DNA from: Pseudomonadota bacterium
GTDB lineage: Bacteria; Pseudomonadota; Alphaproteobacteria; Rhodobacterales; Rhodobacteraceae
Direction of reading: 5' to 3'
DNA: 43,773 nucleotides
Assembly: GCA_039033735.1 (NCBI GenBank)
Contig: JBCCCA010000001.1
Span: 1-43,773 of the forward strand
The position numbers and the translations under genes are program-made. The notes beneath the pieces were generated by a model that saw only the letters and a program-made list of their open reading frames with translations, was not told the DNA's origin and searched no databases. Each line of letters starts with the position of its first letter. Position 1 is the first letter of the stretch. Positions 5,653 through 29,463 of the stretch are shown in pieces.

Positions 5653-7976
5653 GCGCGTGCCCTTTCGCGTTTAGGATCGTAAAACGGGATTGAGCACACG
5701 GTTGCGGTCAGCCGCTTCATGTGCCCGTCCATCTGGCCCACTTCCAGGACTGTCCCAAGCTCGGCTGTTTCGACCGAGAGCCGAGCCATGGCTATGGCCG
5801 TTTCGAACATCGGGGATCGTGTGGCCGAGGTGATGAAGCCGACTGGTCGCTCGCCCGAATAGACATGTGCGCCGTGCAGCGGCACGTCGTTGCACTCAAA
5901 CGTCAGGCCGCGCAAAACGCGACGCGGGTCGCGCGCATTTCGTTCCAAGGCCGCCTGCCCGATAAAACCTGACTTGCCGGGACTGATGGCAAAGCTTAAC
6001 CCAGCTTCATGCGCATCCACGCCTGGCGCGAATTCAGGTCGGGCGGCTAACCCCGCTTCGATGCGCAATATCTCAAGCGCGGCCGACCCCATCGGCGCAA
6101 TTCCGAACTCTTCCCCCGCGCCCATCACTGTATCCCACAGGCGCGTCGCGTCGGACGCCGCGCAAAACAGCTCGTATCCCAATTCTCCGGTGTATCCCGA
6201 GCGCGACAGCATGAACGGGATCCCATCCCGGTCGTTCAGCCGCGCGATTGTCACGCCGAACCATTTGACATCATCCAATGCGGGATGGGCGGGCTGTGTG
6301 AACACGATTTTGCGGAGCACATCGCGGGCGTGCGGCCCTTGAAGGGCCAAGTTGGGCAAGGCGCCGTCCATCGACATGATGCGGGCCTGTAAACCTTCTG
6401 CCTTCGCCAGCGTCTCAAGCGCGCGAGCGCTTTCTTCCGTGCCACAGCACCAGCGGAACAGGTCAGGTGCCAGACGAAACAGCGTTCCGTCATCGATGAC
6501 ACTGCCGGTGTCGTCGCACATCAAGGCATATGTGCCGCGCCAAACTGACAGGCGGGCGATGTCGCGTGTCATCGCGCGCTGCAAAAGCCGTTCCGCGTCG
6601 GGTCCGACAATGTCGTATTTCCGCAGCGATGACATGTCTTGTAGGGTCACGCGCTCGCGGCAGGCCCAGTATTCGCCAACTGTGCCAATGGACGGAAAGC
6701 TGACCGGGGCCCAAAGATCGCGGGCAGGGGCAAAATTGCTGGTCAGCTTTGCGGTCGCGTCATGAAACGCGCTTTCCTGACTGATCGACATCGGGGCGTC
6801 TTCCTTTTCCCGCCACGCAATCGCGCGTTGGAGTTTGGTCTCGGGGCGATAGATGCGCACATGGATATCTGTCGGGTTCCAACCATTGATTGGGTCCAGA
6901 TCATCCGGACATGCGGTTGAAACGCAGACCAGCCTTTCCATGGCTTCCAGCGCGACATAATCGCCGGGCCTCGAATAGCTTTCTTCGGTCATAAGCTGAT
7001 GATTTTGCTCATCAACCCATGTATTCCAGAAGAAATTGATTGCAGGCCAGGCGGGCCTTTTTTCGACCCCAAACGGGTCGAGCGCGTCCGAGATATTGTC
7101 TGAACAGTTCAAATGCCCCGGGAAGCCACGATCTTCGTAACCGCGGGCGGTGCAGGCAAGACCGAACGTGTCATGACGACCGCAGGTGTCTTGAAGGACC
7201 CGCATCATCGGGCTGAGTGAACTGTCAAAGAACTTGTTGAATAGACCCGGGCCCGGATAGGCCCCACGCACCATCGACCGGGTGGCGGTGCTGTCGATGG
7301 TCCGCTCGGTGCCCTGTTCCAGCATGTCGTGGCGAAGGGCCATGAAGTCCGAACATTGCTGGCCTTCGATGTCGATGATCTGCAAAATCTCACCCGGTGC
7401 CAGCTCATACGCTGTCGCTGTGCCACGGGTCACCGTGAACTCGTCCCGAATGTCGCCCAACGGTGGCGGCAGCAATGGCGCATTGCCAATCGCCGCCGGT
7501 TTGACGGCAACTTCGATGGCGCCGGTCGAGCCAGTTTGCGTCAGGTCCGCTGCGCTCAGCGGTTTGATGAGCCACAAAGTGCACGGCGCTTCGGCCTTGA
7601 GCACGGCCAGGTCTTCCAATGTAATAGCCACGGTGTGTAGCGGCATGTCGGCCGCGCCGCCGTTCCGCGTGATCCAGCCAAGCAGTGCGGCGCTGTCAAA
7701 AAGGTTTGGGGGCAGGGCTTCTGTCTCATCGGTAAGCCCAAGCAGCTCTGGTTGAAGTGTGCCGTTGGGACTGAACACCAGAAGACTGACGGATTGTTCG
7801 GCGGCACGTGGCAGCAGTGAGACCACGTCGCCCGGGTTCAAGTCACAGCGCAGTGCGCCACGCGGCGAAAGCCTTTGTCGGAAGGTATCAGATTTCGTCG
7901 GGAAACCAGGGAAGCGCCTGCCGTTTGCAGCACTTCCAACATTGTTGAAGCTATGAATGAGCCCCGTATTGAGCAC
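5649..7976 (-). CDS. tdm: DUF1989 domain fused to a GcvT-type aminomethyltransferase (tetrahydrofolate-binding) domain; this is the architecture of trimethylamine-N-oxide demethylase Tdm
   Basis: The N-terminal half carries DUF1989 motifs (IDIEGQQCSDF, CGRHDTFGLACT, PGDYVALEAMERLVCVSTACP). The C-terminal half carries GcvT motifs (LSRSGYTGELGYELF, RIEAGL). The start is uncertain: the longest ORF begins with GTG at 8015 and has no SD, while GTG at 7976 follows GAGG by 7 nt and does not overlap the upstream palindromic site. Confidence 0.65.
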   Translation of the reverse strand: MLNTGLIHSFNNVGSAANGRRFPGFPTKSDTFRQRLSPRGALRCDLNPGDVVSLLPRAAEQSVSLLVFSPNGTLQPELLGLTDETEALPPNLFDSAALLGWITRNGGAADMPLHTVAITLEDLAVLKAEAPCTLWLIKPLSAADLTQTGSTGAIEVAVKPAAIGNAPLLPPPLGDIRDEFTVTRGTATAYELAPGEILQIIDIEGQQCSDFMALRHDMLEQGTERTIDSTATRSMVRGAYPGPGLFNKFFDSSLSPMMRVLQDTCGRHDTFGLACTARGYEDRGFPGHLNCSDNISDALDPFGVEKRPAWPAINFFWNTWVDEQNHQLMTEESYSRPGDYVALEAMERLVCVSTACPDDLDPINGWNPTDIHVRIYRPETKLQRAIAWREKEDAPMSISQESAFHDATAKLTSNFAPARDLWAPVSFPSIGTVGEYWACRERVTLQDMSSLRKYDIVGPDAERLLQRAMTRDIARLSVWRGTYALMCDDTGSVIDDGTLFRLAPDLFRWCCGTEESARALETLAKAEGLQARIMSMDGALPNLALQGPHARDVLRKIVFTQPAHPALDDVKWFGVTIARLNDRDGIPFMLSRSGYTGELGYELFCAASDATRLWDTVMGAGEEFGIAPMGSAALEILRIEAGLAARPEFAPGVDAHEAGLSFAISPGKSGFIGQAALERNARDPRRVLRGLTFECNDVPLHGAHVYSGERPVGFITSATRSPMFETAIAMARLSVETAELGTVLEVGQMDGHMKRLTATVCSIPFYDPKRERARA

Positions 7977-16043: not shown

Positions 16044-17408
16044 CTACTCGGCCGCCGTAGTCGAGGTCGCAAGCGCGCGCAACTCATTGATTTGCGACAT
16101 GCGCTTGGCCGCAAAGCTGTCTTCGCGCCCGTCGCGCAAAGTGGTGCGTGCACGCAGAAGGGTCTCGGTATCGGCCAATTGGCCTGCGCGAAGCCCGGCC
16201 TCGATGGTCAAACGTTCAAAGACGTCGCGCTGTGCATGGCTGCCACCCATCGCCTGAAAGTCCGGCTGTGCCACTTTCAGATGGGCGAAGGCAGACCCGT
16301 AGTCGGCTTCACCAAACGCCGTCAGGCCACGCGATGCCGCAAGGCCTGGCGTTGTCATGACGGCGGCCATATCGTCGTCCGCGCTGGCCTGCATTGCGAC
16401 GGTGGCGTTCAGCCGCGCCACGGCATCCGTGCGTGTCTCACCTATCAGGGCCAGCATATAGTGCATGTCCGCGAAGGTCAGGCACCCATCCTCGGCACGC
16501 GTTTCGGCCAAATCCGCAAGCTCTACCCAACGGCTCCCGACATCGATACCTTCCAATTCAAGCCGCATCAAAAGTGAGCTGGCATTCGAAAAGTCCCGAT
16601 AGTCGTCCGTCTTTTCGTCCCGAACTTTGGTGTCGTAAAGGCGCAGAACGGTCGAAAAGTCACCTTCGTCCAGGTGCAGCAGTGCTTTGTGCCACCACAC
16701 GTGAAACCGGAAGTTGTTGCAGTGGCTCCAGGCCGGCATGTTCTGGTCGATCAGCGCAATGCCGCGCGACGTGTCGTGTGTCATGTCATAGACATGAGCC
16801 ACAGCGTGCAGCCCCCATGCGTCGTCATCGGCAAACTCAAGGCCGCGTAATCCGACGCGCTCGGCCTTGTCGTATTGCCCTGTCTCTTCCAACGCAAAAG
16901 CGTGGCAGCCTAAAGCGTAGCCATACAGCGCGTGGCTGGGACCATGGGCCGAGAGTATACGTTCGACCGAACGCAGCATCCCATGGTTGTCGCCCAGCAT
17001 GAACCGGATGCCGTGCGACAATTTCATGCTGATCGTATCGGCCGGGTTCAGCTGGATTGCGGTTTCCATCCGCTGGATTGACTGTGTTGGACGGCCAGCC
17101 AGCCAATCGCTCAGTGCAAGACACCAAAGACGTTCCCTTTCGGTTGCGCCGCCAAACTCAAGGCAGCGCGCCATCTCGCGATGTGCGGCTTGAGCTGCCG
17201 CAATCAATTCGCGGCGTCCCAACATGAGACAGGCGAGGCCTTTCATCGCATGACCCATCGCAAAGTCAGGATCACTCGAAATCAAGGCTGTAAGATGCTC
17301 GCCCGTTGATTGGCCGTGAGACAAAACGCCCAGGATGACCCCATTCCATGCCTCCAGTGCGTCGTCCCTTGTAAGACTAACGTCGCACGAGCAAATGTCT
17401 GTCAGCAT
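16044..17408 (-). CDS. Tetratricopeptide-repeat protein (TTC38-like), first gene of the opg transcription unit
   Basis: Helical-repeat composition. Only a 15-nt gap separates it from opgC. Confidence 0.6.
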   Translation of the reverse strand: MLTDICSCDVSLTRDDALEAWNGVILGVLSHGQSTGEHLTALISSDPDFAMGHAMKGLACLMLGRRELIAAAQAAHREMARCLEFGGATERERLWCLALSDWLAGRPTQSIQRMETAIQLNPADTISMKLSHGIRFMLGDNHGMLRSVERILSAHGPSHALYGYALGCHAFALEETGQYDKAERVGLRGLEFADDDAWGLHAVAHVYDMTHDTSRGIALIDQNMPAWSHCNNFRFHVWWHKALLHLDEGDFSTVLRLYDTKVRDEKTDDYRDFSNASSLLMRLELEGIDVGSRWVELADLAETRAEDGCLTFADMHYMLALIGETRTDAVARLNATVAMQASADDDMAAVMTTPGLAASRGLTAFGEADYGSAFAHLKVAQPDFQAMGGSHAQRDVFERLTIEAGLRAGQLADTETLLRARTTLRDGREDSFAAKRMSQINELRALATSTTAAE

Positions 17409-17798
17409 GAACCCACCTTTCTAAGACCACATCATACGTTGTCATGTGTTATCTCAAGCGGGCGGAAAGGGCTTATCACCAGAGCGTTATTCCGCGAAAA
17501 AGTGAATATTTATGAACGATTTGTGAGGTCACGCGGTTTGCCGTTTTTGAGTGGAAATCCGCCACCACTGGCACGTTCTGAAACACGCTTTGCAAAATTT
17601 TCAGGCGAAGCGCCAGTTCGTTGAGGAAAAGTTGGCGGATCAGTGGCGCCAATTGCGATTCTGTGTCCCATCGCCTGTGCGAATGCCTGCCAAAAAATGC
17701 CCGTTAGGGCTGAACTTACCTAAGGTCAGGGCCCAAAAGCTGTAACACTTCTTGCGCCGACCTACTTGTCGTTGCGGACATCACGTTACACTTTTTGC

Positions 17799-19391
17799 TC
17801 AAAATGCGCCATCATACGCCTTTCGATCGATTTGGACGGCGATCACACTGAAGCAGTCCGCATCTTTCGCTTCATTCAAGGCGTCGCGCAATTCCGCTTC
17901 GGACGAAACTGAAAAGCCAAGTCCGCCAAAGGCACGCCCGACGCGCGCAATGTCGGTGCCTTCGAAGTCCACGCCGGTGTTTTTCAAATGACGGCCACGT
18001 TGCTTCAATTCGATCAGGGCCAGCGAGGCGTCGACAAAAACGACGAAGATCGTGCTTAGCTTGCGTTCTGCCGCTGTTGCCAAATCGCCTACGACCATCA
18101 GAAAGCCCGCATCGCCCGAGAATGAGACGACCGTCCGCGCGGGCTCGACCATCTGCATGCCCATCGCCAGAGGAACGGCGCAGCCCATCGTGCAAAATCC
18201 TGACGACTGCACCAGCGCCCGTGGAAATCCGCAGGTCCACATCTGACTGAGCAAGATGCGATGCGCGCCGCTGTCTGCGGTTGCCAGAGTATCGTCGGGC
18301 AAAACCTCCTGACATACGGATATCGCCTGAGCCGGACCCCACGTATCGCCGCGCGGGAATGCAGAGCTTAGCGTCTTGCGAGTGGTCTCGACATCGCCAT
18401 CGGTCCAGACGGCGGACAGGCCGTCTGGTAATAGCGCGGTAACGGTTGCGCCAGGGTCGCCGATAAAATTATGTGTCGCCTGATGCATGTAGTGGTGGTT
18501 TGGTTCGGCCGTGATATCGATCACAACCTGGCGGGCCGTATCCCACGGCGCACGCCATCCGATGCGCATTTCAATCGGATCGTATCCGATGGACAGGATA
18601 ACATCTGCCTTGGCCACAAGCGGAAGTAGGATATCGTCCGCCTTTGGCGAAAGCCCCGCACCCCCCAGCGACAACGCGTGATCCTCGGGCAAAAGACCTT
18701 TTGCTTTATAGGTCGTGATGATCGGTGCACCCAAACGTTCTGCGGCCAGTCGTACCGCGTCCGGCTGGTCCAATGCGTCGACGCCCGCCACAATGAGCGG
18801 GCGCTTCGCCCCGGCAAGTGCAGCCCGCGCCTCCTCAAGGGCAGGGCTCGCGGGCGCCATGGGGTGTGCGGCGGGACGCAAGATGCCGGTACCGGTTGCT
18901 GCGGCATCCGCCACTGAAATCGGGACGTCGATATGAACCGGACCGGGACGCCCCTCGGTCGCAATGCCAAGCGCCTTGTCGATGATGACATGCGCGGCGC
19001 TAGCGCTCAGCTTAAAACTTGCCTTGGTGATGGCTTCAAATACGCGCCCCTGATCCAGGACTTGATGGGTGTAGGTTTGGGCTGTGTCGGCATCGACACA
19101 ACCCGTCAGTACGATCAGCGGTACGCGGTCTTGCCGCGCATTTTCCACCACATTGATTCCGTTCAACGCACCGGGCCCCACGGTTGCCAAAAGAATGCCT
19201 GGCGCACCCGTGCGATGATAAGTGCCTTCCGCCATGAAGCCTGCGGCATTTTCATGCCGGGACAGAACGAATTCGATCCCGACCTTTTGAAGCGCATCAA
19301 GCAGGGTCAGCACTTCGCCACCCGGCATCCCAAAGGCCCAACGACACCCCTGGGCATAAAGCCTTTCGGCCACTACATCCGCTGCACGCAT
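17799..19391 (-). CDS. Thiamine-diphosphate-dependent enzyme of the acetolactate-synthase/IlvB-like family, substrate unknown
   Basis: N-terminal PYR domain (FGMPGGEVLTLLDAL, HENAAGFMAEGTYHRTGAPG) and C-terminal ThDP motif (GDAGFLMVVGDLATAAE...VVFVD). Confidence 0.8.
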   Translation of the reverse strand: MRAADVVAERLYAQGCRWAFGMPGGEVLTLLDALQKVGIEFVLSRHENAAGFMAEGTYHRTGAPGILLATVGPGALNGINVVENARQDRVPLIVLTGCVDADTAQTYTHQVLDQGRVFEAITKASFKLSASAAHVIIDKALGIATEGRPGPVHIDVPISVADAAATGTGILRPAAHPMAPASPALEEARAALAGAKRPLIVAGVDALDQPDAVRLAAERLGAPIITTYKAKGLLPEDHALSLGGAGLSPKADDILLPLVAKADVILSIGYDPIEMRIGWRAPWDTARQVVIDITAEPNHHYMHQATHNFIGDPGATVTALLPDGLSAVWTDGDVETTRKTLSSAFPRGDTWGPAQAISVCQEVLPDDTLATADSGAHRILLSQMWTCGFPRALVQSSGFCTMGCAVPLAMGMQMVEPARTVVSFSGDAGFLMVVGDLATAAERKLSTIFVVFVDASLALIELKQRGRHLKNTGVDFEGTDIARVGRAFGGLGFSVSSEAELRDALNEAKDADCFSVIAVQIDRKAYDGAF

Positions 19392-19464
19392 CTTACCCTC
19401 GCGTTAGGTTACGCGCGAGCTATGCGGCAGAACATGTGATGTGACAAGAGAACCCACGGGAACG

Positions 19465-20118
19465 TCATCGGCCGTTGTCCCCGCCGCCCTCGTGCTGCGT
19501 GTCCGCCAGCGGAAAGGCCCGTGACGGTATGTATTCGCGAAAACTCGAAAGAGTTTGTGCATTGCACTCTTCCTGCCAGCGGGTGCCCGGTTGAATGGCT
19601 GTGATGACCGGAAAACGGTTGCGAAGCTTTAACGCGCGCGGTGTATCTTCCATCGCAATTGCAACCAGCCCGGTCACAGTTCCGTTCTGTCGCTGGATAA
19701 GTTCGATTGCGCCTTCCATCGTGCCACCCGTTTCGATCCATTGATCCACCAAGAGAACACGTGTGCCGTCCGAAAACGCCGGCAGTCGCATTTCCATGTC
19801 CTGCGTCCGGCCCGAGTAATTCGTGAAGCTGACGCGATCCGTGTCGACGCACAGCTTGTCTGCTTTTCGAATGGGCAGGAAACCGACGTTGCGCCGCGCC
19901 GCGATTGCAGCCGCAAGGACAAATCCCATCGCATCCAATCCGCCCACGACATCAAAGTCATAAGGCTCAAGATCGACCAGAAGATCGTCCAAAAGGTCGG
20001 TGAACGCCCGTTGGTTTATGTAGATCGAGGTTGGGTCGAGCCATGCGAATTTATCGCCTTTTGTGTTTGGCGCCATCAGGCTGAAATACCAGCGATCGTC
20101 GCGCGGGCCCTTCGTCAT
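19465..20118 (-). CDS. Type-I phosphoribosyltransferase, adenine-PRT-like
   Basis: PRPP-binding loop VLLVDQWIETGGT and an APRT-like GFLPIRKADKL segment. ATGA overlap with the upstream gene. Confidence 0.75.
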   Translation of the reverse strand: MTKGPRDDRWYFSLMAPNTKGDKFAWLDPTSIYINQRAFTDLLDDLLVDLEPYDFDVVGGLDAMGFVLAAAIAARRNVGFLPIRKADKLCVDTDRVSFTNYSGRTQDMEMRLPAFSDGTRVLLVDQWIETGGTMEGAIELIQRQNGTVTGLVAIAMEDTPRALKLRNRFPVITAIQPGTRWQEECNAQTLSSFREYIPSRAFPLADTQHEGGGDNGR

Positions 20119-20852
20119 GTCACGTCTCCCAGTTGTTCGGCGACAGCAAGCAAGCGCTTCAGCCGGCCCGGTTCGATATCATAGAAGTTGCCGTCATGAT
20201 TGATGCCGGTTGCAACCATGAAGGCATCGACCTCGCGGTAGCGATGCGCGTTCTCGGGTGTGATCCCCGACGCCAAGGCCAAGGCATGGTCGCCGATTGC
20301 GGTGCGGAAGGTGCTGATCTTCTGATCCTCGGCTTCGACGCCGGTGGCCTGACCGGATGTGCACACAACATCCATCCATTCACATGCGAGTGTTGCGGCC
20401 CGCTCATAGTCTGCCTCAGCCACGGGGCGCTGTTTCTTGAAAGCCGTTCCTCCGAAGTAAAGACCGCTCCAGCCCACGCGGGCATCCGCTATTTCTTCCG
20501 CTTCGGTTTGCGCGTCGGTTCGTTCATCAATCCGCGCGTCATCCGCCCAATAGGCGTCGATCCGGCAGCCGTCCCGTTCCAGTTGCGCGAGCGTCGGGAA
20601 GGCGTGGCGTCCTGTCACGTCAAGAAAATTCACGCCCATCCAAAGAGTGGGGCAGGCGGCCCTTACATCGCGCAAAATCCGAAGGAATTGTTCAACGCCG
20701 AAGTCATGATTGATCAAGAAACACCCCGGCGCGTCCAACTCGGTTAGGATGTCGATGTTGGCCAATGTACGGTCTGTTTCAAGCACGTGGATCACGGGCA
20801 GAACGACGGGGCCGCGCTTACCGAAGCTTGCCCGAAACTCCGTTCTGTTCAT
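20115..20852 (-). CDS. TIM-barrel protein, BtpA/SgcQ-like (tentative)
   Basis: Beta-strand/helix alternation, with LPVIHV, GVNFL, ASGITPENA and DAFMVATGI segments reminiscent of the BtpA family. Not verifiable without an HMM search. Confidence 0.4.
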   Translation of the reverse strand: MNRTEFRASFGKRGPVVLPVIHVLETDRTLANIDILTELDAPGCFLINHDFGVEQFLRILRDVRAACPTLWMGVNFLDVTGRHAFPTLAQLERDGCRIDAYWADDARIDERTDAQTEAEEIADARVGWSGLYFGGTAFKKQRPVAEADYERAATLACEWMDVVCTSGQATGVEAEDQKISTFRTAIGDHALALASGITPENAHRYREVDAFMVATGINHDGNFYDIEPGRLKRLLAVAEQLGDVT

Positions 20853-20998
20853 TTCATAACCCCCACTGCATAAAACTTGTGCAACGCATCAATTTTTGGC
20901 GCAGTCTTGATCCAACGCCCGGGAATCGGATGCGGGCCAGCGCGTCTGATCTCATAACCGAGCTGTTGGAAAACTGGAAACAGACAGGGAGAGTGGGG

Positions 20999-22126
20999 AT
21001 GTCTAACGCCAAATTCATGCAAACCAAGCGGAGTTTTCTCAAAACCGGGCTTGCCTCGGTTGCGCTGACGACACCGTTCGTCAATCGCGCTTGGGCGCAG
21101 ACCGTCGAACTGACCATGCTAGGATGGTACGGAACTGCCGAGCCGGACATGGTCGCCGCGTTCGAAGAAGCGAACAACGTCAAGTTTGTACCGAAATACT
21201 ATGCCGGCGGAGACAACATGCTGGCCGCACTGGCGCAAAACCCGCCGGGCACCTTCGACATTATTCACACCGATGCCGAGTACGCCAAGCTGCTGGTCGC
21301 AAACGATCTGGTGATGGAACTGGACCCGAACGCCTATGCGTTTGACGATCTGCTGCATGACGATTTCAAGAACTTTGCGGGCCATTGGGACGACGGCGGT
21401 AAGTTGTATTCGTTGATCACTCGCTTTGGTCATTTGGGTGTGTCCTATAACAAGGATGTCCTGACCGCAGAAGAAGCCGCCAGCTATGACATCTTCTGGG
21501 ACGGACGCCTGACAGGCAAAGTCGGCCACTTCGATTGGCACCTACCCACACTGGGGCAAATGAGCCTGTTGATGGGCAACGCCTCGCCGTTCGACATCGG
21601 CGGAGATGCCTGGAGTGCCGTGCAAGAGAAGACGCTTTCGCTCAAGCCGCAGGTCGGGGGATATTTCGACTTTGGCGGCACGTTCTCGGGCCTCAAGAAT
21701 GGCGAGATGCTGGCTATGGTCGGCATTGGAGACTGGGTGACGGGAATCTTGGAACGTGACGGCGCGCCAGTCTCGTCGGTCGTCCCGAAGGAGGGCGGCA
21801 TTCAGTGGACCGAAAGTTACTCGATTGCGAAGACATCTGAGAAAGCGGACCTCGCGCTGAAGTACCTCGACTACACGATGTCGCCAGAAGGTCAGGTGAA
21901 GACCGCACAGATGCTCGGCTATCCGGGCCACTGCGTGACCAAATCCGGCCGTGCCATGTTGAATGAGGTCGACGGCGCCGAAGCGCAGCGTTCCGGTCAG
22001 GTGGACGGCGATCCACGTGATCCCATCACGATGATCAACGAAGGCCGCATCAGCTATCGTGACATCCCGGTCCAGCAGACGCTGGAGGATTGGAACGATT
22101 TCTGGTCAGAATACAAGAACGCCTGA
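20999..22126 (+). CDS. PotD/PotF-family (polyamine/opine-type) periplasmic substrate-binding protein with a Tat-like leader
   Basis: Leader MSNAKFMQTKRSFLKTGLASVALTTPFVNRAWAQ. GGGAGAG lies upstream of the ATG at 20999; the longer ORF from 20765 is a 5' artefact. Confidence 0.8.
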   Translation: MSNAKFMQTKRSFLKTGLASVALTTPFVNRAWAQTVELTMLGWYGTAEPDMVAAFEEANNVKFVPKYYAGGDNMLAALAQNPPGTFDIIHTDAEYAKLLVANDLVMELDPNAYAFDDLLHDDFKNFAGHWDDGGKLYSLITRFGHLGVSYNKDVLTAEEAASYDIFWDGRLTGKVGHFDWHLPTLGQMSLLMGNASPFDIGGDAWSAVQEKTLSLKPQVGGYFDFGGTFSGLKNGEMLAMVGIGDWVTGILERDGAPVSSVVPKEGGIQWTESYSIAKTSEKADLALKYLDYTMSPEGQVKTAQMLGYPGHCVTKSGRAMLNEVDGAEAQRSGQVDGDPRDPITMINEGRISYRDIPVQQTLEDWNDFWSEYKNA

Positions 22127-22156
22127 TCCCATGACGGTTAAGTCGAGGCGGGACTT

Positions 22157-23005
22157 ATGAAGTCCCGTCTCAACATTTATGCGCTGACCTTCCGTCTGCC
22201 GATCATCATCTGGCAGACGCTCTTTTTCATTGGCCCGCTGATTTTTGTGGTGGCGATGTCATTCTTCGTCGTGCGCAACTTCCAGATGGTCGAAACCTTC
22301 GAGTTGGACAGTTGGTCGCGCATGCTGTCGCGCGATTTCGTTTGGGACGCTTACGTTTACACGATCCTCATGGCGGGCAGCGCGGCGATCTTGGCGTCGC
22401 TCATCGCCTTCCCGGCCGCCTACTGTTTGGCGTTTCAGACCTCAGCCTCGACGCGACAAATCGCGATCATGCTGCTGATCATTCCGTTTTTCACCAGCTA
22501 TCTTGTGCGTACCTTCAGTTGGTACACGATCCTCGCTGAAGCGGGTGTGCTGAATGGCGCGGTGGGTCTCATCGGGCTTGGCCCCTACACGCTCTTGAAC
22601 ACCGCTATTGGCACACTGATCGGCTATCTGACACTGATCATGCCACTCGTGCTAATCCTGCAGACCGTCACTATGGCTAACATCGATGACCGTTTGATCC
22701 AGGCCGCGCGCAATCTTGGCTGCTCGCCCGCGCGCACCATTCGCACTGTCATCCTGCCCGCTGGCAAGACGGGTTTCGTCATCGCCGCGCTCTTTGCCTT
22801 CATCCTGTCCTTCGGAGATTTTGTGGCGCCGTTCTATCTCGGCGGCTCCAATCCGCCAACACTGCCGATCCTGATTATCGACACCACAAAGGCCGGTCAG
22901 CAATGGCCGCGTGCCGCCGTCGTTGCCGTCATCATGATGGTGACGCTTTTTATCGTGGCCTTTAGCGCCATCATGTATGCCTACCGGAAAAGGGCCAGCC
23001 GATGA
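22157..23005 (+). CDS. ABC transporter permease (PotB-like)
   Basis: Six TM segments and an EAA loop (IQAARNLGCSPARTIRTVILP). Confidence 0.85.
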   Translation: MKSRLNIYALTFRLPIIIWQTLFFIGPLIFVVAMSFFVVRNFQMVETFELDSWSRMLSRDFVWDAYVYTILMAGSAAILASLIAFPAAYCLAFQTSASTRQIAIMLLIIPFFTSYLVRTFSWYTILAEAGVLNGAVGLIGLGPYTLLNTAIGTLIGYLTLIMPLVLILQTVTMANIDDRLIQAARNLGCSPARTIRTVILPAGKTGFVIAALFAFILSFGDFVAPFYLGGSNPPTLPILIIDTTKAGQQWPRAAVVAVIMMVTLFIVAFSAIMYAYRKRASR

Positions 23006-23781
23006 CCCTGTTCCTTCGCGCTTGGCTGATCCTTGTGGCAAGCTTCATCTTACTGCCGATATTCGTTAGCATGCTCTTTTCCTTTAACGAGGCACGCTTT
23101 CCCACACTGCCGCTGACAGGTTTCACAACCCATTGGTATGAAAACATATTTGCCGATGATGACTTCTGGCGCTCGGCCGGGAACAGCCTGACAGTTTCCG
23201 GCACCACCGCAGTCATTGCCACCTTCCTCGGTTTCTGCACAGCGTATACCGATTACCGCTACAGCTTCCGGGGCAAGAGCCTGTTCCTCGCCATTATCCT
23301 CCTGCCCCCCACGATCCCGCTGATCATCATCGCGCTCGCGATGCTGGCGTGGTTCAGCCGGGTGGGCATGTCGGGGCAGGTGGCCTCGATCATCGCTGCC
23401 CACACCGTTCTGACCGCGCCTTTCGCGATGGCCATTATTCGGCTGAGGCTCTCACAGATTGACGAAAGCCTTGAGGCTGCCGCCTGGAACCTGGGCGCCA
23501 GTGAGTGGCGGGCGATGCGTGAAGTGATCCTGCCGTTCTGCAAACCTGCGATCTTGTCGTCACTGTTTTTGACAGCGGCTGTGTCCTTCGATGAGTTCAC
23601 CGTCTCGTGGTTCGTCTCTGGCCTGAACAAGACGCTGCCCGTCCATGTGCTGGAAATCGTGCAAGGCACCATCGACCCGCAGGTCAACGCTATCGGTACG
23701 CTGGTCTTCGGTGTCTCGATCACGCTTGTGATGATCTCTCAGGCGCTCATCTTCTTCCGACTACAGAGAGCAACGCAATGA
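23002..23781 (+). CDS. ABC transporter permease (PotC-like)
   Basis: EAA loop (LEAAAWNLGASEWRAMREVILP). ATGA overlaps at both ends. Confidence 0.85.
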   Translation: MTLFLRAWLILVASFILLPIFVSMLFSFNEARFPTLPLTGFTTHWYENIFADDDFWRSAGNSLTVSGTTAVIATFLGFCTAYTDYRYSFRGKSLFLAIILLPPTIPLIIIALAMLAWFSRVGMSGQVASIIAAHTVLTAPFAMAIIRLRLSQIDESLEAAAWNLGASEWRAMREVILPFCKPAILSSLFLTAAVSFDEFTVSWFVSGLNKTLPVHVLEIVQGTIDPQVNAIGTLVFGVSITLVMISQALIFFRLQRATQ

Positions 23782-24845
23782 CGGCTCCACTCGTTACCCT
23801 AGACAAGGTCGAAAAGCGCTTTGACGACTTCGTCGCCGTCCGCGAAGCCAACCTCAATATCGGGGCAGGGGAGTTCATCGCGATCATGGGGCCGTCGGGC
23901 TGTGGCAAGACCACGACGCTTCGCATGCTTGCGGGCCTCGACGCACCAACGTCAGGTGAAATACGTGTCGCGGGCAAGGTCATGAACGAAGTCGCCGCGC
24001 ATGAGCGGGACACGCCCATGGTCTGGCAAAGCCTTGCGTTGTTCCCGTTTCTGAACGCCCGCGAGAATGTCGAGTTTGGCCTCAAGATGCGGGGCATCGA
24101 TCCGACTGAGCGTAAGACTCGCGCCATGAACTGGCTCGACCGCATGGAAATCGCCGAGTTCGCCGAGCGCAATGTCGAAACCCTGTCCGGGGGGCAACGA
24201 CAACGTGTGGCACTCGCCCGTGCGCTGGTGACCGAACCGCAACTTCTGCTGCTCGATGAACCGCTTTCCGCCCTGGACGCCCATCTTGTGATCCGGATGC
24301 AGGGGGTCCTGACCAAACTCCAAAAAGAGTTGGGTATCACTTTTGTCTATGTGACCCACTCCCAATCCGAAGCCTGTGCCATGGCCGACCGCGTAGTGAT
24401 CATGTCCAGGGGCGAGATCGCACAGGTTGGCACACCGCGCGAGGTCTACCGCGCGCCGCGCACCCGTTTTGTCGCCGAATTTGTCGGTCGGAACAATATC
24501 TTGCCTGGCACAGTGAAGGCATCCGACGCAGGGGAAGTCACGGTCGAGACCGCTCTTGGCACATTCCAAACCCCCGGCGAGGCCCCAGTGGGCAAGTCCG
24601 CGTCCATCGTCATTGCAGGCGATATGATGCAGATCGGTCCAGGTGAGAATTCAATCGAAGCCACGGTCATCTCGGAGGAATTCGTTGGCTCCATCGTCAC
24701 CGCTTTCCTCGAAGCCGACGATGGCACCGAGTTGAAAGTCCAGGTGCAGGAACGCGTGTTGGCTGAGCTTGATCTGACAGCGGGCAGCAAAGTCACGCTT
24801 CACTGGTCCACGAACGACGGCCACCTGTTGCTGGAGGACACATGA
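23778..24845 (+). CDS. ABC transporter ATP-binding protein (PotA-like, with a C-terminal TOBE-type domain)
   Basis: Walker A GPSGCGKTT, signature LSGGQRQRVALARAL and Walker B LLLLDEPLSALD. The ATG at 23778 overlaps the stop of the previous gene. Confidence 0.9.
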   Translation: MTAPLVTLDKVEKRFDDFVAVREANLNIGAGEFIAIMGPSGCGKTTTLRMLAGLDAPTSGEIRVAGKVMNEVAAHERDTPMVWQSLALFPFLNARENVEFGLKMRGIDPTERKTRAMNWLDRMEIAEFAERNVETLSGGQRQRVALARALVTEPQLLLLDEPLSALDAHLVIRMQGVLTKLQKELGITFVYVTHSQSEACAMADRVVIMSRGEIAQVGTPREVYRAPRTRFVAEFVGRNNILPGTVKASDAGEVTVETALGTFQTPGEAPVGKSASIVIAGDMMQIGPGENSIEATVISEEFVGSIVTAFLEADDGTELKVQVQERVLAELDLTAGSKVTLHWSTNDGHLLLEDT

Positions 24846-25711
24846 TCCAGAACCCCATACCCTGGCCCAACGGCGCAAAATGCGCGTGCGCCATCACGTT
24901 TGACATGGACGCCGACAGCCTGATCCACATCGCCCGTCCCGAAGACAGCATCGACCGGCTTTACCCAATCTCCATGGGCCGCTACGGCCCCACGGTCGCC
25001 ATCCCGCGCATTCTCGACACCTATCGACGTCTTGGGATCAAACAAAGCTTCTTCATCCCTGGCTGGTGTATGGAGACTTATCCCGAGGCTGTGGAGGCCA
25101 TTCTGAAAGACGGCCATGAGATCGGCCATCACGGCTGGATCCACGAAGACCCTATCGTCACCAAAGGGGCGGCGCAGGAGGAATCGTTCGAGAAGGCACT
25201 CGACACCCACAAGCGCATGACCGGCACCAGTCCGCGCGGCTACCGCGCGCCAGTTTATAACGTCACCCAGCAAGTCATTGATCTTCTGGTGAAACATCAA
25301 TTTCGTTATGACAGCTCTCTGATGGCGGATGACATCCCATACAAGATGCAAACCAGCGACGGTGCACTTTACGAGATGCCCGTTCACTGGGGCACCGACG
25401 ATTGGCCGCCCTTCGCCCATTACGATGAGATCGGCTACATGATGCCAGTCCGCGGCCCTTCCGCTGGCCTCGAAGGCTTCTGGGAAGAGTTCGAAGCGCA
25501 GTACGAAGCAGGTGGCTTTTTTATGCTGATCGTCCATCCGTTCCTGACCGGCAGGCTCGCGCGCTGGAGGTTGGTCGAGCAATGGCTGCAAACCACACTG
25601 GAAGAACGTGACGTCTGGTTCGCACCCTTGGAGGTGATTGCCGACCATCTTGATACGGTTCAAAGTCTCCGAACCGAGCATCTGCCGTATTACTCCGACC
25701 CCCAAAGCTAG
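24842..25711 (+). CDS. Polysaccharide-deacetylase-fold hydrolase (PuuE-allantoinase-like subgroup)
   Basis: NodB-fold motifs: CAITFDMDADS, GHEIGHHGWIHE, GYRAPVYN. ATGA overlap with the ATPase gene. Confidence 0.75.
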   Translation: MIQNPIPWPNGAKCACAITFDMDADSLIHIARPEDSIDRLYPISMGRYGPTVAIPRILDTYRRLGIKQSFFIPGWCMETYPEAVEAILKDGHEIGHHGWIHEDPIVTKGAAQEESFEKALDTHKRMTGTSPRGYRAPVYNVTQQVIDLLVKHQFRYDSSLMADDIPYKMQTSDGALYEMPVHWGTDDWPPFAHYDEIGYMMPVRGPSAGLEGFWEEFEAQYEAGGFFMLIVHPFLTGRLARWRLVEQWLQTTLEERDVWFAPLEVIADHLDTVQSLRTEHLPYYSDPQS

Positions 25712-25722
25712 GGAGACCGACC

Positions 25723-26172
25723 ATGCTGTCCGACACTGATGCCAAGTTTCTGCGCGTCGCCTATGACGAAGCCAAGGGTGGCTATGACGAAGGCGGTTGC
25801 CCCATCGGCTCTGTCTTGGCGCGTGGCGACACGCTGGTGGCTCAAGGCCGCAATCAACGCGTCCAAAAAGGCGACCCCATTGCTCACGGCGAAATGGATG
25901 CGCTGCGCAAGGCGGGTCGCCAAAAGACCTACAAGGACACCACGCTCTACACTTCGCTTAGCCCTTGCATGATGTGCACCGGCACGATCATCCAGTTCGG
26001 CATCCCCCGGGTCGTGATCGGCGAGAACACCACATTCGGCGGCAACGAAGACTTGCTGCGCGCACGGGGCGTCGAGGTGATTATCGCCAACGATCCCGAT
26101 TGCATCGCGCTTATGACCAAGTTCATCGAGGAAAAGCCCGAGCTTTGGAACGAAGACATCGCGGAGGATTGA
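25723..26172 (+). CDS. FCY1-type (yeast-like, CDA-fold) cytosine deaminase family protein
   Basis: Zn motifs HGEMDAL and SPCMMCTG. By my recollection of yeast Fcy1 it aligns end to end (YKDTTLYTSLSPCMMCTGTIIQFGIPRVVIGEN, FIEEKPELWNEDI). GGGAGA SD present. Confidence 0.8.
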   Translation: MLSDTDAKFLRVAYDEAKGGYDEGGCPIGSVLARGDTLVAQGRNQRVQKGDPIAHGEMDALRKAGRQKTYKDTTLYTSLSPCMMCTGTIIQFGIPRVVIGENTTFGGNEDLLRARGVEVIIANDPDCIALMTKFIEEKPELWNEDIAED

Positions 26173-26173
26173 G

Positions 26174-26818
26174 ATGGAAACGCTCATCACTGGCGCGCCA
26201 GCACTGCCCGAACGCACCATCTTCGAAGACACGGTCGTCCCTGCACGCGCGCCTTGGAGCGCGAAGCTGACCAAGGGCCAATCCCTCCGCCTTATCGACC
26301 TAGAAGGCCAGCAAGCCATCGACTTCCTCTGCTTTGGCGCGGAGCCTCATGACGGCCAGATCGAACGCTACCATATGCCGAATACCATCAAGATCCCGAA
26401 GCAATTGACGCTGAGCAAGGGCACGACGCTCTATTCGCAATTCGCCCGCCCCATGATGACCATCATCGACGATAGCTGCGGTGGGCATGATACCATCTTC
26501 GGCTGCTGCTCGTTCCATGTCGACCAAGTGCGCTATGGCAAACAAAACGCCGAATGCTGCCAGCGCAACTTCGAACGCGAGATGGCTCGACACAGCATTG
26601 GCCCCGAGCATGTCGTTGCCAACGCCAACTTCTTCATGAATGTGCCGGTTGGTGCGGACGGCCATGTGGAGATTACAGACAGCCAGTCAAAACCCGGCGA
26701 TTACGTGGATTTGCGGGCCGAGATGGATGTCGTCGCCGTCTTGTCGAATTGCCCGCAAGAACTGAACCCAGCGGCCGGTCAGGGCCCCACTCCGATCCGC
26801 GCGATCGTCTTTAAATAG
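26174..26818 (+). CDS. Stand-alone DUF1989 protein (urea-carboxylase-associated / carboxyguanidine-deiminase-like family)
   Basis: It shares IDLEGQQAIDF, CGGHDTIFGCC and PGDYVDLRAEMDVVAVLSNCP with the N-terminal half of the tdm-like gene in this window. GGAGGA SD present. One nt separates it from the deaminase stop. Confidence 0.75.
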   Translation: METLITGAPALPERTIFEDTVVPARAPWSAKLTKGQSLRLIDLEGQQAIDFLCFGAEPHDGQIERYHMPNTIKIPKQLTLSKGTTLYSQFARPMMTIIDDSCGGHDTIFGCCSFHVDQVRYGKQNAECCQRNFEREMARHSIGPEHVVANANFFMNVPVGADGHVEITDSQSKPGDYVDLRAEMDVVAVLSNCPQELNPAAGQGPTPIRAIVFK

Positions 26819-26929
26819 ACAGCCGCAATGATCTGCCACGTAGTGAAAGACGCGACACTGGATGGATGCCAGAATACGGGCTTCTCCTGTATTGGAATTG
26901 CACTGCCGCCGGCCCAGCAATGCCGGCAC

Positions 26930-27844
26930 CTAATTCTCGGCGACGGCCCATCTTTGCCCATTGCTGAAATGCTCCAACAAAAAATCCATGAACACGCGTA
27001 CCTTTGCCGACAAGACATTGGTCTTGGGATAGACCAGCCAAAGCGCGGATTGCGCCTGAACAGACCATTCCGGAAGCACATGCACAAGTTGCTGTTCCGA
27101 GACTTCCCGATGCACGCTCCAAATTGAGTTAATAGAAATTCCAGCACCGCTGAGTGTCGCAATCTTTTGGCTTAGGCCGTCATCCAGGATCATTGCACAT
27201 TTGGCACCGCGTGGGGCAAATCGGCCGATGGCATTTTGCGGACCGACCAGTGCCTTTTCCATCAGGTCCTTGAACGCAATCAGTTGATGCGTGTTGAGGT
27301 CATCTGGATGCATTGGCTGGCCATGGGTTTTCAGATAGGCGGGGCTTGCGCATAGGATCCTGCGGTCATCGGCCAGCTTCCGCCCTTTCAGGCTGGAGTC
27401 TTCCAGAACCATGTTGCGCAGCGCCAGATCAAAGCTTCCTTCGATTAGGTCGAATTCGGCATCTGACAGGCGCAGGTCCAGCACGACACCGGGATGCTGT
27501 TCCAGAAACTTGGGCAGGATGGGCGCGATGTAAAGCTGAGCAAACGTGCTGGGTGCTGTGAAGCGCAGAGTGCCTGTGGCTTGCGCTTCGCCGTGGCCAA
27601 GGACGGCAAGGGCCGCATCTTCCTGCGCGAGAATTTCGCGCGCATAGGGCAGGAACTCGGCTCCTTCGAGGGACAGCGACACCTTGCGCGTGGAGCGGTG
27701 CAACAGATCAGCACCCACCGATTGCTCCAGTTTGGCAAGCCGTGCGCTGGACACAGCAGGCGCCAAACCAAGGTCGCGGCCCGCGGCACTGATATTCAGC
27801 TTTTCGGCAGCCAGCACGAACAAGCGCAGCGCATCAGTATCCAT
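26930..27844 (-). CDS. LysR-family transcriptional regulator
   Basis: HTH MDTDALRLFVLAAEKLNISAAGRDLGLAPAVSSARLAKLE followed by a LysR substrate-binding domain. It diverges from the Liv-type binding-protein gene. The longest ORF reaches 27883. Confidence 0.85.
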   Translation of the reverse strand: MDTDALRLFVLAAEKLNISAAGRDLGLAPAVSSARLAKLEQSVGADLLHRSTRKVSLSLEGAEFLPYAREILAQEDAALAVLGHGEAQATGTLRFTAPSTFAQLYIAPILPKFLEQHPGVVLDLRLSDAEFDLIEGSFDLALRNMVLEDSSLKGRKLADDRRILCASPAYLKTHGQPMHPDDLNTHQLIAFKDLMEKALVGPQNAIGRFAPRGAKCAMILDDGLSQKIATLSGAGISINSIWSVHREVSEQQLVHVLPEWSVQAQSALWLVYPKTNVLSAKVRVFMDFLLEHFSNGQRWAVAEN

Positions 27845-28209
27845 TATTATATCCAAAACCAGAATTGAGAGCACTAAATTCAACTATTTATCTGTGTTTT
27901 TCAATGTTTGCGATGAAGTAGGGAAAAGGATGAGACGGGCCGCCATCACGTGCGCAAACTGCAACAGTAACCAGCCTTCTGTCGCGCACGGTGCCAGTAA
28001 AATCGCAATAAAACCATGCCCCAAACGGTTTCGCTATGCGTCAGCGAGCCGTTTCAATGAAGCGGCACCAGGCCAGGGCCAGTCCGCCATGGGCGAAAAA
28101 AACAGACGGATCGTTACGTCTTCGCACCTTTCGGTATCCGATTGCGTGAGCGCTGATGTCAGGCTTTTGCAAGGTGGAGACACCAGTCGAAATCCAAGGG
28201 AGGAAACCT

Positions 28210-29463
28210 GTGAAAAAGACTCTTATCTCTAGCGTTTCAGTATTGTCGCTCTGCGCTCTTGCTGGTGCGGCATCTGCTGAAACTTTGAAAGTGGGTGTTC
28301 TTGCGACACTCGAAGGAACCTATACCCAATTGGGCGAAGACGGTGTGCGCGGCGTGAAAACCGCGCTGGAAAAAGCTGGCTATTCAGCGGGTGGTCGCGA
28401 CATCGAAATCATTATCCAGTCGACAGATACCAGCCCTGACAGCGCGGTGCGCGGCGCGCGCAAGCTTGTCGAGCAAGATGGTGTTGAAATTGTCGTTGGT
28501 CCGCTGTCGGGGTCTGAGGGTATCGCCATCCGCGACTTCTCCAAGACTGCACCTCAGGTGACTTTTATCAACGGGTCGTCCGGTGCGCTTGAAACCACTT
28601 ATGTGGATCCATCCGAAAACTTCTTCCGGTTCAACACAGAAGGCGGCCAATGGTCTGTTGGTCTTGGCGACTACGTGTTCAACGAGAAGGGCTGGGAAAC
28701 AGTTGCGACCGTAGGCGAGGACTATTCCTTTGTTTATACGCAGGTTATGGGCTTCACGATCGACTACTGCAAAGCCGGTGGCGAAGTTACCGAAGCACTT
28801 TGGGTCCCACTTGGGACAAAGGACTTCGGATCGATCATCGCATCGCTGCCTGATGATGTGGATGCGATCTATCTGGGTCTGGGTGGCGGTGATGCCGTCA
28901 ACTTCCTTAATCAGTACCAGCAGGCAGGGGGCGATGCGAACCTGATTGGTGGCACGATTATGGTGAATGGTGACGTTCTCAACTCCAAAGGAGACGCCAA
29001 GAACGCCCTGATCGGCACACCCTCTTCCGGCCCACAGGCTGACACGTCGGATACACCTGCGTGGAAGGAATACGTGAAGCTCTATCAGGACACATTCGCG
29101 CCTGAAGATCGCTTCCCGTCTCCATCGCTGTTGGCAACGACGTACTACAACGCGACATCTGCCATGTTGGCATGTGTTGATCAGACCGGCGGCAACTTTG
29201 GCGATGGACAGGCCGATCTACGCTCCTGCCTTTCTACTTTGGAGTTGGACAGCCCCACCGGCAAAATCGTACTCGACGAAAACCGCCAGGCGATCGCCAC
29301 CACCTTTGTCAACGAAGTCGTCGAAATGGATGACGGAACGCTGGCGAATGCGATGGTCGCAAAATACGACAACGTGACGCAAACGCTGGGTCTCGACAAA
29401 GCTGCATTCGATGCGCTTGGTCTGCCGTCGCGTGAACTGCCCGAGTGTAAAACCTCATACTAA
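28210..29463 (+). CDS. Liv/HAAT-family (Peripla_BP_6-like) periplasmic substrate-binding protein
   Basis: Signal peptide VKKTLISSVSVLSLCALAGAASAE and LKVGVLATLEGTY. GTG at 28210 is preceded by GGGAGGAA. Confidence 0.8.
   Translation: MKKTLISSVSVLSLCALAGAASAETLKVGVLATLEGTYTQLGEDGVRGVKTALEKAGYSAGGRDIEIIIQSTDTSPDSAVRGARKLVEQDGVEIVVGPLSGSEGIAIRDFSKTAPQVTFINGSSGALETTYVDPSENFFRFNTEGGQWSVGLGDYVFNEKGWETVATVGEDYSFVYTQVMGFTIDYCKAGGEVTEALWVPLGTKDFGSIIASLPDDVDAIYLGLGGGDAVNFLNQYQQAGGDANLIGGTIMVNGDVLNSKGDAKNALIGTPSSGPQADTSDTPAWKEYVKLYQDTFAPEDRFPSPSLLATTYYNATSAMLACVDQTGGNFGDGQADLRSCLSTLELDSPTGKIVLDENRQAIATTFVNEVVEMDDGTLANAMVAKYDNVTQTLGLDKAAFDALGLPSRELPECKTSY

Follow-up and report, generated by a model that had tools for sequence, protein, structure and literature searches.

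Organization of the locus

We examined an import operon and a divergently oriented gene pair on a 43,773-nucleotide stretch of contig JBCCCA010000001.1 (assembly GCA_039033735.1), from an alphaproteobacterium of the family Rhodobacteraceae. This whole stretch is referred to here as the window, and the genome assembly to which it belongs is 75% complete. The original prediction described seven co-directional genes at 20999-26818 with three ATGA overlaps, and the open reading frames, the junctions and our domain calls (Pfam and NCBIfam models, judged against curated cut-offs) bore out both the arrangement and the stated domains. It left out an invariant partner of the system, namely the genes for a divergent BtpA-like barrel and a phosphoribosyltransferase (PRT) at 19465-20852. 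Our results support the view that the seven-gene operon is real and that it is catabolic, import-linked and directed at an N-heterocycle of the cytosine or creatinine type. The features are as follows.

19465-20118, minus strand: atypical type-I PRT, adenine phosphoribosyltransferase (APRT)-like, 217 aa (Pfam Pribosyltran)
20115-20852, minus strand: BtpA/SgcQ-like phosphate-binding (beta/alpha)8 barrel, 245 aa (Pfam BtpA at E 1e-5, below cut-off)
20853-20998, no strand: divergent control region of 146 bp between the barrel/PRT pair and the importer operon
20999-22126, plus strand: PotD-like periplasmic binding protein, clade II (SBP_bac_8)
22157-23005, plus strand: ATP-binding cassette (ABC) permease 1 (BPD_transp_1; PotH/PotB-like)
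23002-23781, plus strand: ABC permease 2 (BPD_transp_1; PotC-like), ATGA overlap
23778-24845, plus strand: ABC ATPase with TOBE domain (ABC_tran and TOBE_2; PhnT2/PotA-like, below cut-offs), ATGA overlap
24842-25711, plus strand: cytoplasmic CE4/NodB-fold metal hydrolase, 3RXZ-like (Polysacc_deac_1)
25723-26172, plus strand: Fcy1-type (yeast-type) cytosine deaminase, 149 aa (dCMP_cyt_deam_1)
26174-26818, plus strand: stand-alone DUF1989 protein, A-type (PF09347, 193 bits)
26930-27883, minus strand: LysR-family regulator, convergent (HTH_1 and LysR_substrate)

Read from the sequence in 5' to 3' order, the junctions of the operon are a 30-nt gap, three ATGA overlaps (permease 1/permease 2, permease 2/ATPase and ATPase/CE4), an 11-nt gap between the CE4 and deaminase genes that carries a GGGAGA Shine-Dalgarno sequence, and a 1-nt gap. 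The PRT and barrel genes likewise overlap by ATGA. Since the gene order repeats in more than 55 loci across several orders of the Alphaproteobacteria, the arrangement goes beyond chance.

Distribution of related loci

A scan of one-genome-per-species contigs with an alignment of the barrel, in which the query matched 179 stretches, returned 80 loci from the Rhodobacterales, Hyphomicrobiales, Rhizobiaceae and Thalassobaculaceae. The PRT gene adjoins the barrel gene in all 80, and an orthologous importer adjoins the pair in 72, five of the remaining eight ending at a contig edge. The barrel/PRT pair divergent from the series binding protein, two permeases, ATPase and CE4 accounts for 72 of the 80 loci, in taxa that include Silicimonas, Roseovarius, Pseudaestuariivita, Sulfitobacter, Marivita, Anderseniella, Aestuariivirga, a Rhizobium sp. 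and the Thalassobaculaceae; the loci closest to that of the window were from genomes named Silicimonas, and the window's genome is probably of that genus too. Of the 57 importer loci with sequence beyond the ATPase gene, 55 carry CE4, and the barrel gene is retained in 51 of those 55.

Accessory genes were counted in the 55 loci with importer, CE4 and at least 1.5 kb of sequence beyond CE4. Sixteen hold the Fcy1-type deaminase as sole accessory and 14 hold none; eight combine the deaminase with a DUF1989 of the window's type, and another eight combine it with URC genes. An agmatinase-like ureohydrolase occurs in seven, six of which also have a second DUF1989 type beyond the PRT gene. One locus each has the deaminase with the second-type DUF1989 and the deaminase with both URC genes and DUF1989. 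Overall, the Fcy1-type deaminase was found in 39/55 loci and the window-type DUF1989 in 8/55. The deaminase, deacetylase and DUF1989 had been proposed to travel as a conserved trio, and this does not hold, with deaminase and window-type DUF1989 together in 8/55 loci and neither in 14/55. The conserved unit is instead the importer with the barrel/PRT pair; CE4 is nearly constant in the lineages in which barrel and PRT are unfused, and the enzyme cassettes vary.

Several loci depart from this pattern. In a Pikeienuella sp. (L136, 1-11400) the barrel-PRT pair follows a gene of a TRAP-transporter DctM cluster, which replaces the ABC importer and hints that some relatives import a carboxylated substrate. 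One 44.7-kb contig of a metagenome-assembled genome (JBEARP010000116.1) holds the whole module twice (L161 and L165) as a head-to-head inverted duplication, which may reflect either a true palindromic duplication or faulty assembly. Genes of the HyuA/HyuB type (caprolactamase or hydantoinase/oxoprolinase family), a cyclic-amide-opening accessory, were seen beside the module only in L108 (5295-9043) and L141.

The barrel/PRT pair

In the ESM Atlas and among longer proteins, at least 286 fusions of barrel and PRT were found, with the barrel leading and an identity of 55-61% to that of the window, which is strong evidence that the two work together. The fused form numbers in the hundreds in metagenomes, and one example was found in 57 blocks of the assembly index. 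In two loci with a fused gene (L178 and L181) a Glyoxalase_3 protein gene follows that of the ATPase, and a distant CE4 gene, 28% identical in L178, is convergent to the fused gene.

Against the NCBIfam APRT models the PRT scored 92 bits, under the cut-off, and it matched APRTs of the PDB at E 2e-15. Its phosphoribosyl pyrophosphate (PRPP) loop reads VLLVDQWIETGGT in the window. The loop has the form VDQW[VI]ETGGT, in which Gln takes the second of the two acidic positions before TGGT. The motif DQW[VI]ETGGT is present in 80/80 separate and 118/120 fused forms, or 198/200 family members examined. The barrel has no sequence relative in the PDB. Its AlphaFold2 model (pLDDT 88.5) resembled TrpA, ribulose-phosphate epimerase, KDO8P synthase and class II aldolases in Foldseek comparison (TM ~0.6); these are generic sugar-phosphate barrels, and therefore no specific enzyme family can be assigned. 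Its substrate probably contains a ribose- or ribulose-phosphate moiety on which it acts. The barrel is annotated as BtpA or as adenine phosphoribosyltransferase, and these labels are probably wrong.

The importer

Among named models the binding protein is closest to PotD, with 48 bits against a cut-off of 582, and a PDB search returned PotD and PotF at E 1e-12. In a low-identity alignment with PotD the residues W34, W255 and Y293 are kept, and of the acidic polyamine ligands E36, D168, E171 and D257, E36 and E171 are lost and only D257 is kept, as Glu. With an aromatic box and one acidic ligand retained and E36 and E171 lost, a small planar mono-cationic or polar heterocycle fits better than a polyamine. 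The importer is annotated everywhere as a spermidine/putrescine transporter, which is probably wrong.

A protein search of plasmids with the window's binding protein added importers from named strains. Those ~50-58% identical to it sit with genes for LysR, creatininase and an M24 (creatinase-type) peptidase, and barrel/PRT genes are absent there; they were found on plasmids of Leisingera caerulea, Paracoccus aminovorans, Brucella anthropi, Shinella sumterensis and Azoarcus sp. KH32C (L183, L186, L187, L188 and L190). These PotD-like importers are annotated as spermidine/putrescine transporters. They are probably creatinine importers, and if they do take creatinine they are widely mis-annotated.

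A tree of 94 binding proteins resolved two clades, split at 97 SH-aLRT. The first (8 rows) comprises the creatininase-linked and amidase-cassette-linked importers, and the second, clade II (86 rows), all importers linked to barrel/PRT. In clade II the window's protein falls among those of its roseobacter relatives, beside the URC-linked importers of L179 and L182 and in the same clade as those linked to CodA. The suggestion of a creatinine pathway thus gains from the related importers in creatininase/creatinase operons and loses from the position of the window's importer outside their clade. We infer that the importer family carries small cyclic amidines, the barrel/PRT clade being tied to cytosine-to-uracil chemistry and its sister clade to creatinine.

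The deaminase and the link to uracil catabolism

The deaminase aligns end to end with yeast cytosine deaminase (yCD) at E 8e-42. Its AHGEM and SPCMMC segments align with the zinc and catalytic residues H62/E64 and C91/C94, and the ring contacts I33, N51, F114, W152 and D155 are identical, the C-terminal lid helix included. The assignment as an FCY1-type deaminase thus stands, with a full-length match and every yCD zinc and ring-contact residue kept. From these residues the enzyme would be expected to act on free cytosine, and the uracil phosphoribosyltransferase (UPRT) and URC context of related loci is consistent with this.

Clade-II importers adjoin three kinds of deaminase: the Fcy1 type (in the 39/55 loci above), the CodA type, and a pair of CDA-fold genes (L182). 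A CodA-type cytosine deaminase ends the importer operon in L177, an abundant marine form (NF005748, 684 bits), and on a Rhodovulum sp. P5 plasmid. The cytosine deaminases beside this importer clade therefore belong to two unrelated folds. Genes of the URC pathway recur in the same setting. URC1 (PF12471 and PF00925) passes NF005536 with 696 bits, URC4 corresponds to DUF1688, and the two occur with UPRT beside clade-II importers in about eleven loci. In L173 and eight loci of the Anderseniella type, URC1, URC4 and UPRT genes come after the deaminase gene within its operon, and in L110 their place is after the PRT gene. The operon of Parasphingorhabdus (L179) runs from a fused barrel-PRT gene through the importer directly to URC1 and URC4. 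In L182 two CDA-fold deaminase genes precede the fused barrel-PRT gene and importer, with URC1-URC4 ~2.5 kb downstream and UPRT upstream. The URC and cytosine-deaminase links point to cytosine-to-uracil chemistry, rather than a hydantoin route, as the main line in the window's importer clade, a connection that the original prediction missed.

Uracil is broken down by URC1, URC4 and URC6 through a ribosylated intermediate, with urea and 3-hydroxypropionate as the products (PMC7530994; PMC3869809), and URC1 is given as a UTP cyclohydrolase (Zhang et al. 2021, as cited in PMC12507026). Fitness data from Azospirillum brasilense implicate a cytosine deaminase and two ABC operons in cytosine use (bioRxiv 10.1101/072470). 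Membership of these ABC operons in the window's importer family could not be shown. A search of plasmids with the binding protein at E 1e-40 brought up no Azospirillum record.

CE4 and DUF1989

The CE4 protein matches Pfam PF01522 at 56 bits, above the cut-off of 23, and its nearest solved relative is the uncharacterised Mycobacterium smegmatis protein 3RXZ (E 7e-54), with PuuE at only E 8e-9. Residues D21, D23, H97, H101 and H232, corresponding to the catalytic Asp, metal triad and catalytic His, are invariant among 22 orthologues. The original prediction saw a PuuE-like ring-opening hydrolase here. Against the PuuE model TIGR03212, however, the protein scored 56 bits where 424.6 are required, and D23, H97 and H101 align where PuuE chains, whose site is metal-independent, have Glu, His and Trp. 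Because it keeps the canonical Asp-His-His of true CE4 enzymes, its sequence is that of a putative metal-dependent amide hydrolase and not of the PuuE type. The usual annotation as polysaccharide deacetylase is probably wrong.

DUF1989 scored 210.6 bits with UAAP2 (cut-off 284.7) and 156.6 with UAAP1 (cut-off 205.95). Its invariant C112, C129 and C193 align with the zinc-ligand cysteines of Tdm/3ORU (PMC12560246), and the residue aligned with Tdm H276, a proposed iron ligand, is Asn. It is a probable Zn-Cys3 C-N hydrolase or deiminase by sequence comparison. A DUF1989 search of the genome, 75% complete as it is, gave two matches only, this gene and a Tdm-like one, and therefore no CgdAB-type pair. 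The second match lies at ~6849-7484 on the minus strand, inside an open frame of ~800 aa of the Tdm (trimethylamine N-oxide demethylase) type. The claim that DUF1989 has no conventional explanation here holds as far as a CgdAB-type pair is concerned; the genome was not searched for urea carboxylase or allophanate hydrolase.

CE4 and DUF1989 occur together in at least five different architectures and are thus functionally linked, in agreement with the earlier suggestion that they act in one pathway. In Leisingera methylohalidivorans (L191) the operon reads importer-amidase-CE4-DUF1989, with a CE4 69% identical to the window's, and in Variovorax paradoxus DUF1989-CE4-amidase is divergent from the importer. 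Another locus (G017) combines an NMT1-type importer, two short-chain dehydrogenases/reductases, CE4, an agmatinase-like ureohydrolase, DUF1989 and a GbcA-like Rieske oxygenase. A further one (G407) has LysR, DUF1989, an amidohydrolase like TRZ/ATZ and 8-oxoguanine deaminases, CE4 and an amidase, and is the originally proposed trio with a non-homologous deaminase. In G709, 6.7 kb separates CE4 from UAAP1/2, urea carboxylase and allophanate hydrolase genes in canonical layout. The link is limited to the CE4 orthogroup of at least 68% identity: CE4 homologues of at most 52% identity were found in 45 of 401 alphaproteobacterial genomes, none near a cytosine deaminase or DUF1989 gene. DUF1989 homologues 70-72% identical to the window's also stand alone beside DUF599/EamA genes. 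The second DUF1989 type is ~30-37% identical to the window's, so that two non-orthologous types have been recruited to the locus at different positions.

Control region and flanking genes

Alignment of the control region (20853-20998) showed motifs kept across genera, namely TTGTGCA..TTGGCGCA, CCGGGAATCGGATGC (CCG-N5-CGG) and CATAA, which are candidate operator or promoter elements. The sole match in an Rfam scan of 17300-28300 was a chance snoRNA under the gathering score; no family was found in the control region, and thus no known riboswitch. A scan for promoters and terminators gave counts at or below shuffled expectation, with no promoter-like site above chance in 20853-20998. The LysR gene at 26930-27883 is a possible regulator of the operon; its position is not conserved, as it was not seen adjoining the operon in the other loci fetched, and other loci have a different LysR gene between the barrel and binding-protein genes. 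Downstream of the PRT gene (17799-19391, minus strand) lies a gene for a thiamine diphosphate enzyme of 530 aa, for which the best models were acetolactate-synthase-like and 5-guanidino-2-oxopentanoate decarboxylase, all under cut-off. We considered it as a member of the system and rejected it, because it was not found adjoining the PRT gene in the other loci examined, same-genus genomes included; in Roseovarius rhodophyticola a DAO-family oxidase gene takes its place beside PRT. It is probably outside the conserved system.

Interpretation

Our preferred reading, which we hold tentatively and at a little under even confidence, is that the operon is a variant of a widespread, mostly alphaproteobacterial locus for the uptake of small cyclic amidines and the release of their nitrogen, with cytosine the most likely substrate and creatinine or 5-substituted cytosines as possible ones. 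Judging from context, the importer would bring in cytosine or a look-alike, perhaps creatinine, and the Fcy1-type deaminase, from its sequence, would remove the exocyclic amino group to convert cytosine to uracil. The PRT/barrel pair would then convert the base and process its N-ribosyl-5-phosphate derivative at the nucleotide level, a step proposed by analogy with the URC pathway, where phosphoribosylation of uracil has to come before ring cleavage. CE4 and DUF1989 may form a separate two-enzyme cassette, ring-opening and C-N-hydrolysing, which would open a cyclic ureide or imide or hydrolyse an N-acyl-urea or N-acyl-guanidine intermediate to urea-type products or ammonia.

Several points weigh against this reading. 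The proteins of the locus are known from sequence and gene context alone. CE4 would not be expected to open aromatic uracil, which leaves its role in a pure cytosine route unexplained, and the window's CE4 orthogroup is also found behind a creatinine-clade importer. The binding-protein tree is quick and midpoint-rooted, with long branches, and we found no precedent for a PotD-like binding protein that takes cytosine. Neither URC1 nor URC4 was found in the window's 75%-complete genome, and a search that did find URC4 in three known carriers did not find it in five carriers that are 98-100% complete; URC degradation of uracil would therefore be absent from those genomes. Finally, UPRT coexists with the PRT in URC-type loci, and this leaves the base used by the PRT unassignable.

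The route first proposed for this operon, in which the deaminase converts creatinine to N-methylhydantoin, CE4 opens this without ATP to N-carbamoylsarcosine, and DUF1989 or an unlinked amidase releases sarcosine, CO2 and NH3, is a live rival that we nevertheless consider unlikely. It is chemically coherent and well matched by the amidase-CE4-DUF1989 cassettes, such as that behind the importer of L191 with its 69%-identical CE4, and by the succession DUF1989, ring deaminase, CE4 and amidase in G407. Importers ~50-58% identical in LysR/creatininase/M24 operons speak for it, as do HyuA/B-type lactamases and a sarcosine-oxidase-like DAO protein as accessories in some loci. Some cytosine deaminases also deaminate creatinine, and CgdAB, a DUF1989 enzyme, deiminates an N-acyl-guanidine. 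Yet the route leaves the invariant barrel/PRT pair without a role and the URC links unexplained; the trio occurs in 8/55 loci only, and the window's binding protein groups with the URC/cytosine-deaminase clade rather than the creatininase clade. The deaminase, moreover, keeps the full cytosine pocket, the CE4 metal site is not PuuE-like, and the window's operon has no amidase. A mixed function is possible, in which one deaminase serves two substrates and passes uracil to the PRT and N-methylhydantoin to CE4.

The remaining rivals account for less of the locus. Plain pyrimidine salvage, in which imported cytosine would be deaminated to uracil and converted to UMP by the PRT with CE4 and DUF1989 as unrelated passengers, agrees with the canonical deaminase pocket, with L177 and Rhodovulum, where importer, CodA and barrel/PRT stand alone, and with the failure to find URC genes in the window's incomplete genome. 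It is improbable, however: the CE4 gene is translationally coupled to that of the ATPase by ATGA and present in 55/57 loci reaching past it, nitrogen is released by every one of the DUF1989, ureohydrolase, amidase and URC cassettes, salvage would need no more than housekeeping Upp, and the barrel would have no role. Import of an N-acylated or conjugated cytosine (e.g. N4-acetylcytosine), deacylated by CE4 before the freed cytosine is deaminated, would suit a CE4 gene with the deacetylase catalytic set directly after the transporter genes, and the gene order CE4 then deaminase. We regard it as highly improbable, since the DUF1989 link and the occurrence of CE4 orthologues in guanidine/urea-type contexts are left unexplained, and CodA loci without CE4 exist. 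As for the automatic annotation, an importer of polyamines or acetyl-polyamines with its deacetylase would match the closest similarity of binding protein, permeases and ATPase to Pot components and the PDB hits to PotD/PotF at E 1e-12. This is barely credible, with all scores far under family cut-offs (48 versus 582 bits), the PotD acidic ligands E36 and E171 lost, and every recurrent neighbour belonging to pyrimidine, creatinine or urea chemistry.

At its most novel, the locus may hold two new N-heterocycle chemistries, which we consider doubtful. One would be an ATP-independent route of CE4 and stand-alone DUF1989, whose substrates may be five-membered cyclic guanidines or ureides (creatinine or N-methylhydantoin type), with CE4 as ring opener, DUF1989 as acyl-guanidine deiminase or carbamoyl hydrolase, and an amidase or ureohydrolase encoded elsewhere. 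The other would be a pyrimidine step with a new importer family: the barrel and DQ-loop PRT may catalyse a nucleotide-level step of pyrimidine utilisation, coupled to a new PotD-like family of ABC importers for cytosine or creatinine.

Plankton and animals release cytosine, uracil and creatinine, all of them rich in nitrogen, and roseobacters rank among the major consumers of such compounds; the locus is common among Alphaproteobacteria of sea and soil. Its chemistry, once solved, would correct many annotations, define a new importer specificity and give a function to stand-alone DUF1989 proteins and the 3RXZ-type CE4 subfamily. It could also extend the only partly known URC pathway by a step, or provide an ATP-free creatinine route for biosensors.

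Comparison with known systems

Import-coupled catabolic operons for N-heterocycles, Fcy1-type deaminases and the URC pathway are already known. Our literature searches turned up no account of the specificity of the importer, of a fused barrel-PRT enzyme, of the 3RXZ-type CE4 or of the stand-alone DUF1989, and those on DUF1989, on creatinine with deacetylase and on creatininase with ABC transporter yielded no description of this locus.

The window's deaminase shares fold, length, and zinc and ring-binding residues with Fcy1 (PDB 1UAQ, 1OX7 and 2O3K), but is bacterial and operonic with an ABC importer. Its CE4 has the NodB fold, cytoplasmic location and length of ~290 aa in common with 3RXZ, HpPgdA (3QBU) and PuuE allantoinase (3CL6). 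Unlike PuuE it keeps the Asp-His-His triad and scores far too low with TIGR03212, and it has no polysaccharide context. The DUF1989 protein shares the PF09347 fold and Zn-Cys3 site with CgdAB of the guanidine carboxylase pathway and with Tdm, and as for CgdAB its context is nitrogen release from urea- or guanidine-like groups. It differs from CgdAB in being encoded by one gene instead of forming a heteromeric pair, in the absence of carboxylase and allophanate hydrolase genes from its surroundings and in a score below the UAAP2 cut-off, and from Tdm in having no GcvT domain and Asn at the H276 position.

The creatinine clusters (creatininase, M24 creatinase and importer) resemble the locus in their homologous PotD-like importer under a LysR regulator and in a substrate that is a cyclic amidine isosteric with cytosine. 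They belong to the other importer clade and have no barrel/PRT and no cytosine deaminase, whereas the window's operon has no creatininase or creatinase; Pfam and NCBIfam models also detected in it neither an HyuA/B-type N-methylhydantoinase nor an N-carbamoylsarcosine amidase, which are parts of the creatinine deaminase route. With the URC pathway (Lachancea kluyveri URC1/URC4/URC6, Schizosaccharomyces pombe urg1-3 and bacterial operons) the locus would share the use of cytosine or uracil as nitrogen source, a phosphoribosyltransferase step before ring cleavage and urea-type end products. It differs in that its PRT is APRT-like with a DQ PRPP loop and is not Upp, and in its barrel, CE4 and DUF1989, which lie outside the URC pathway as described.

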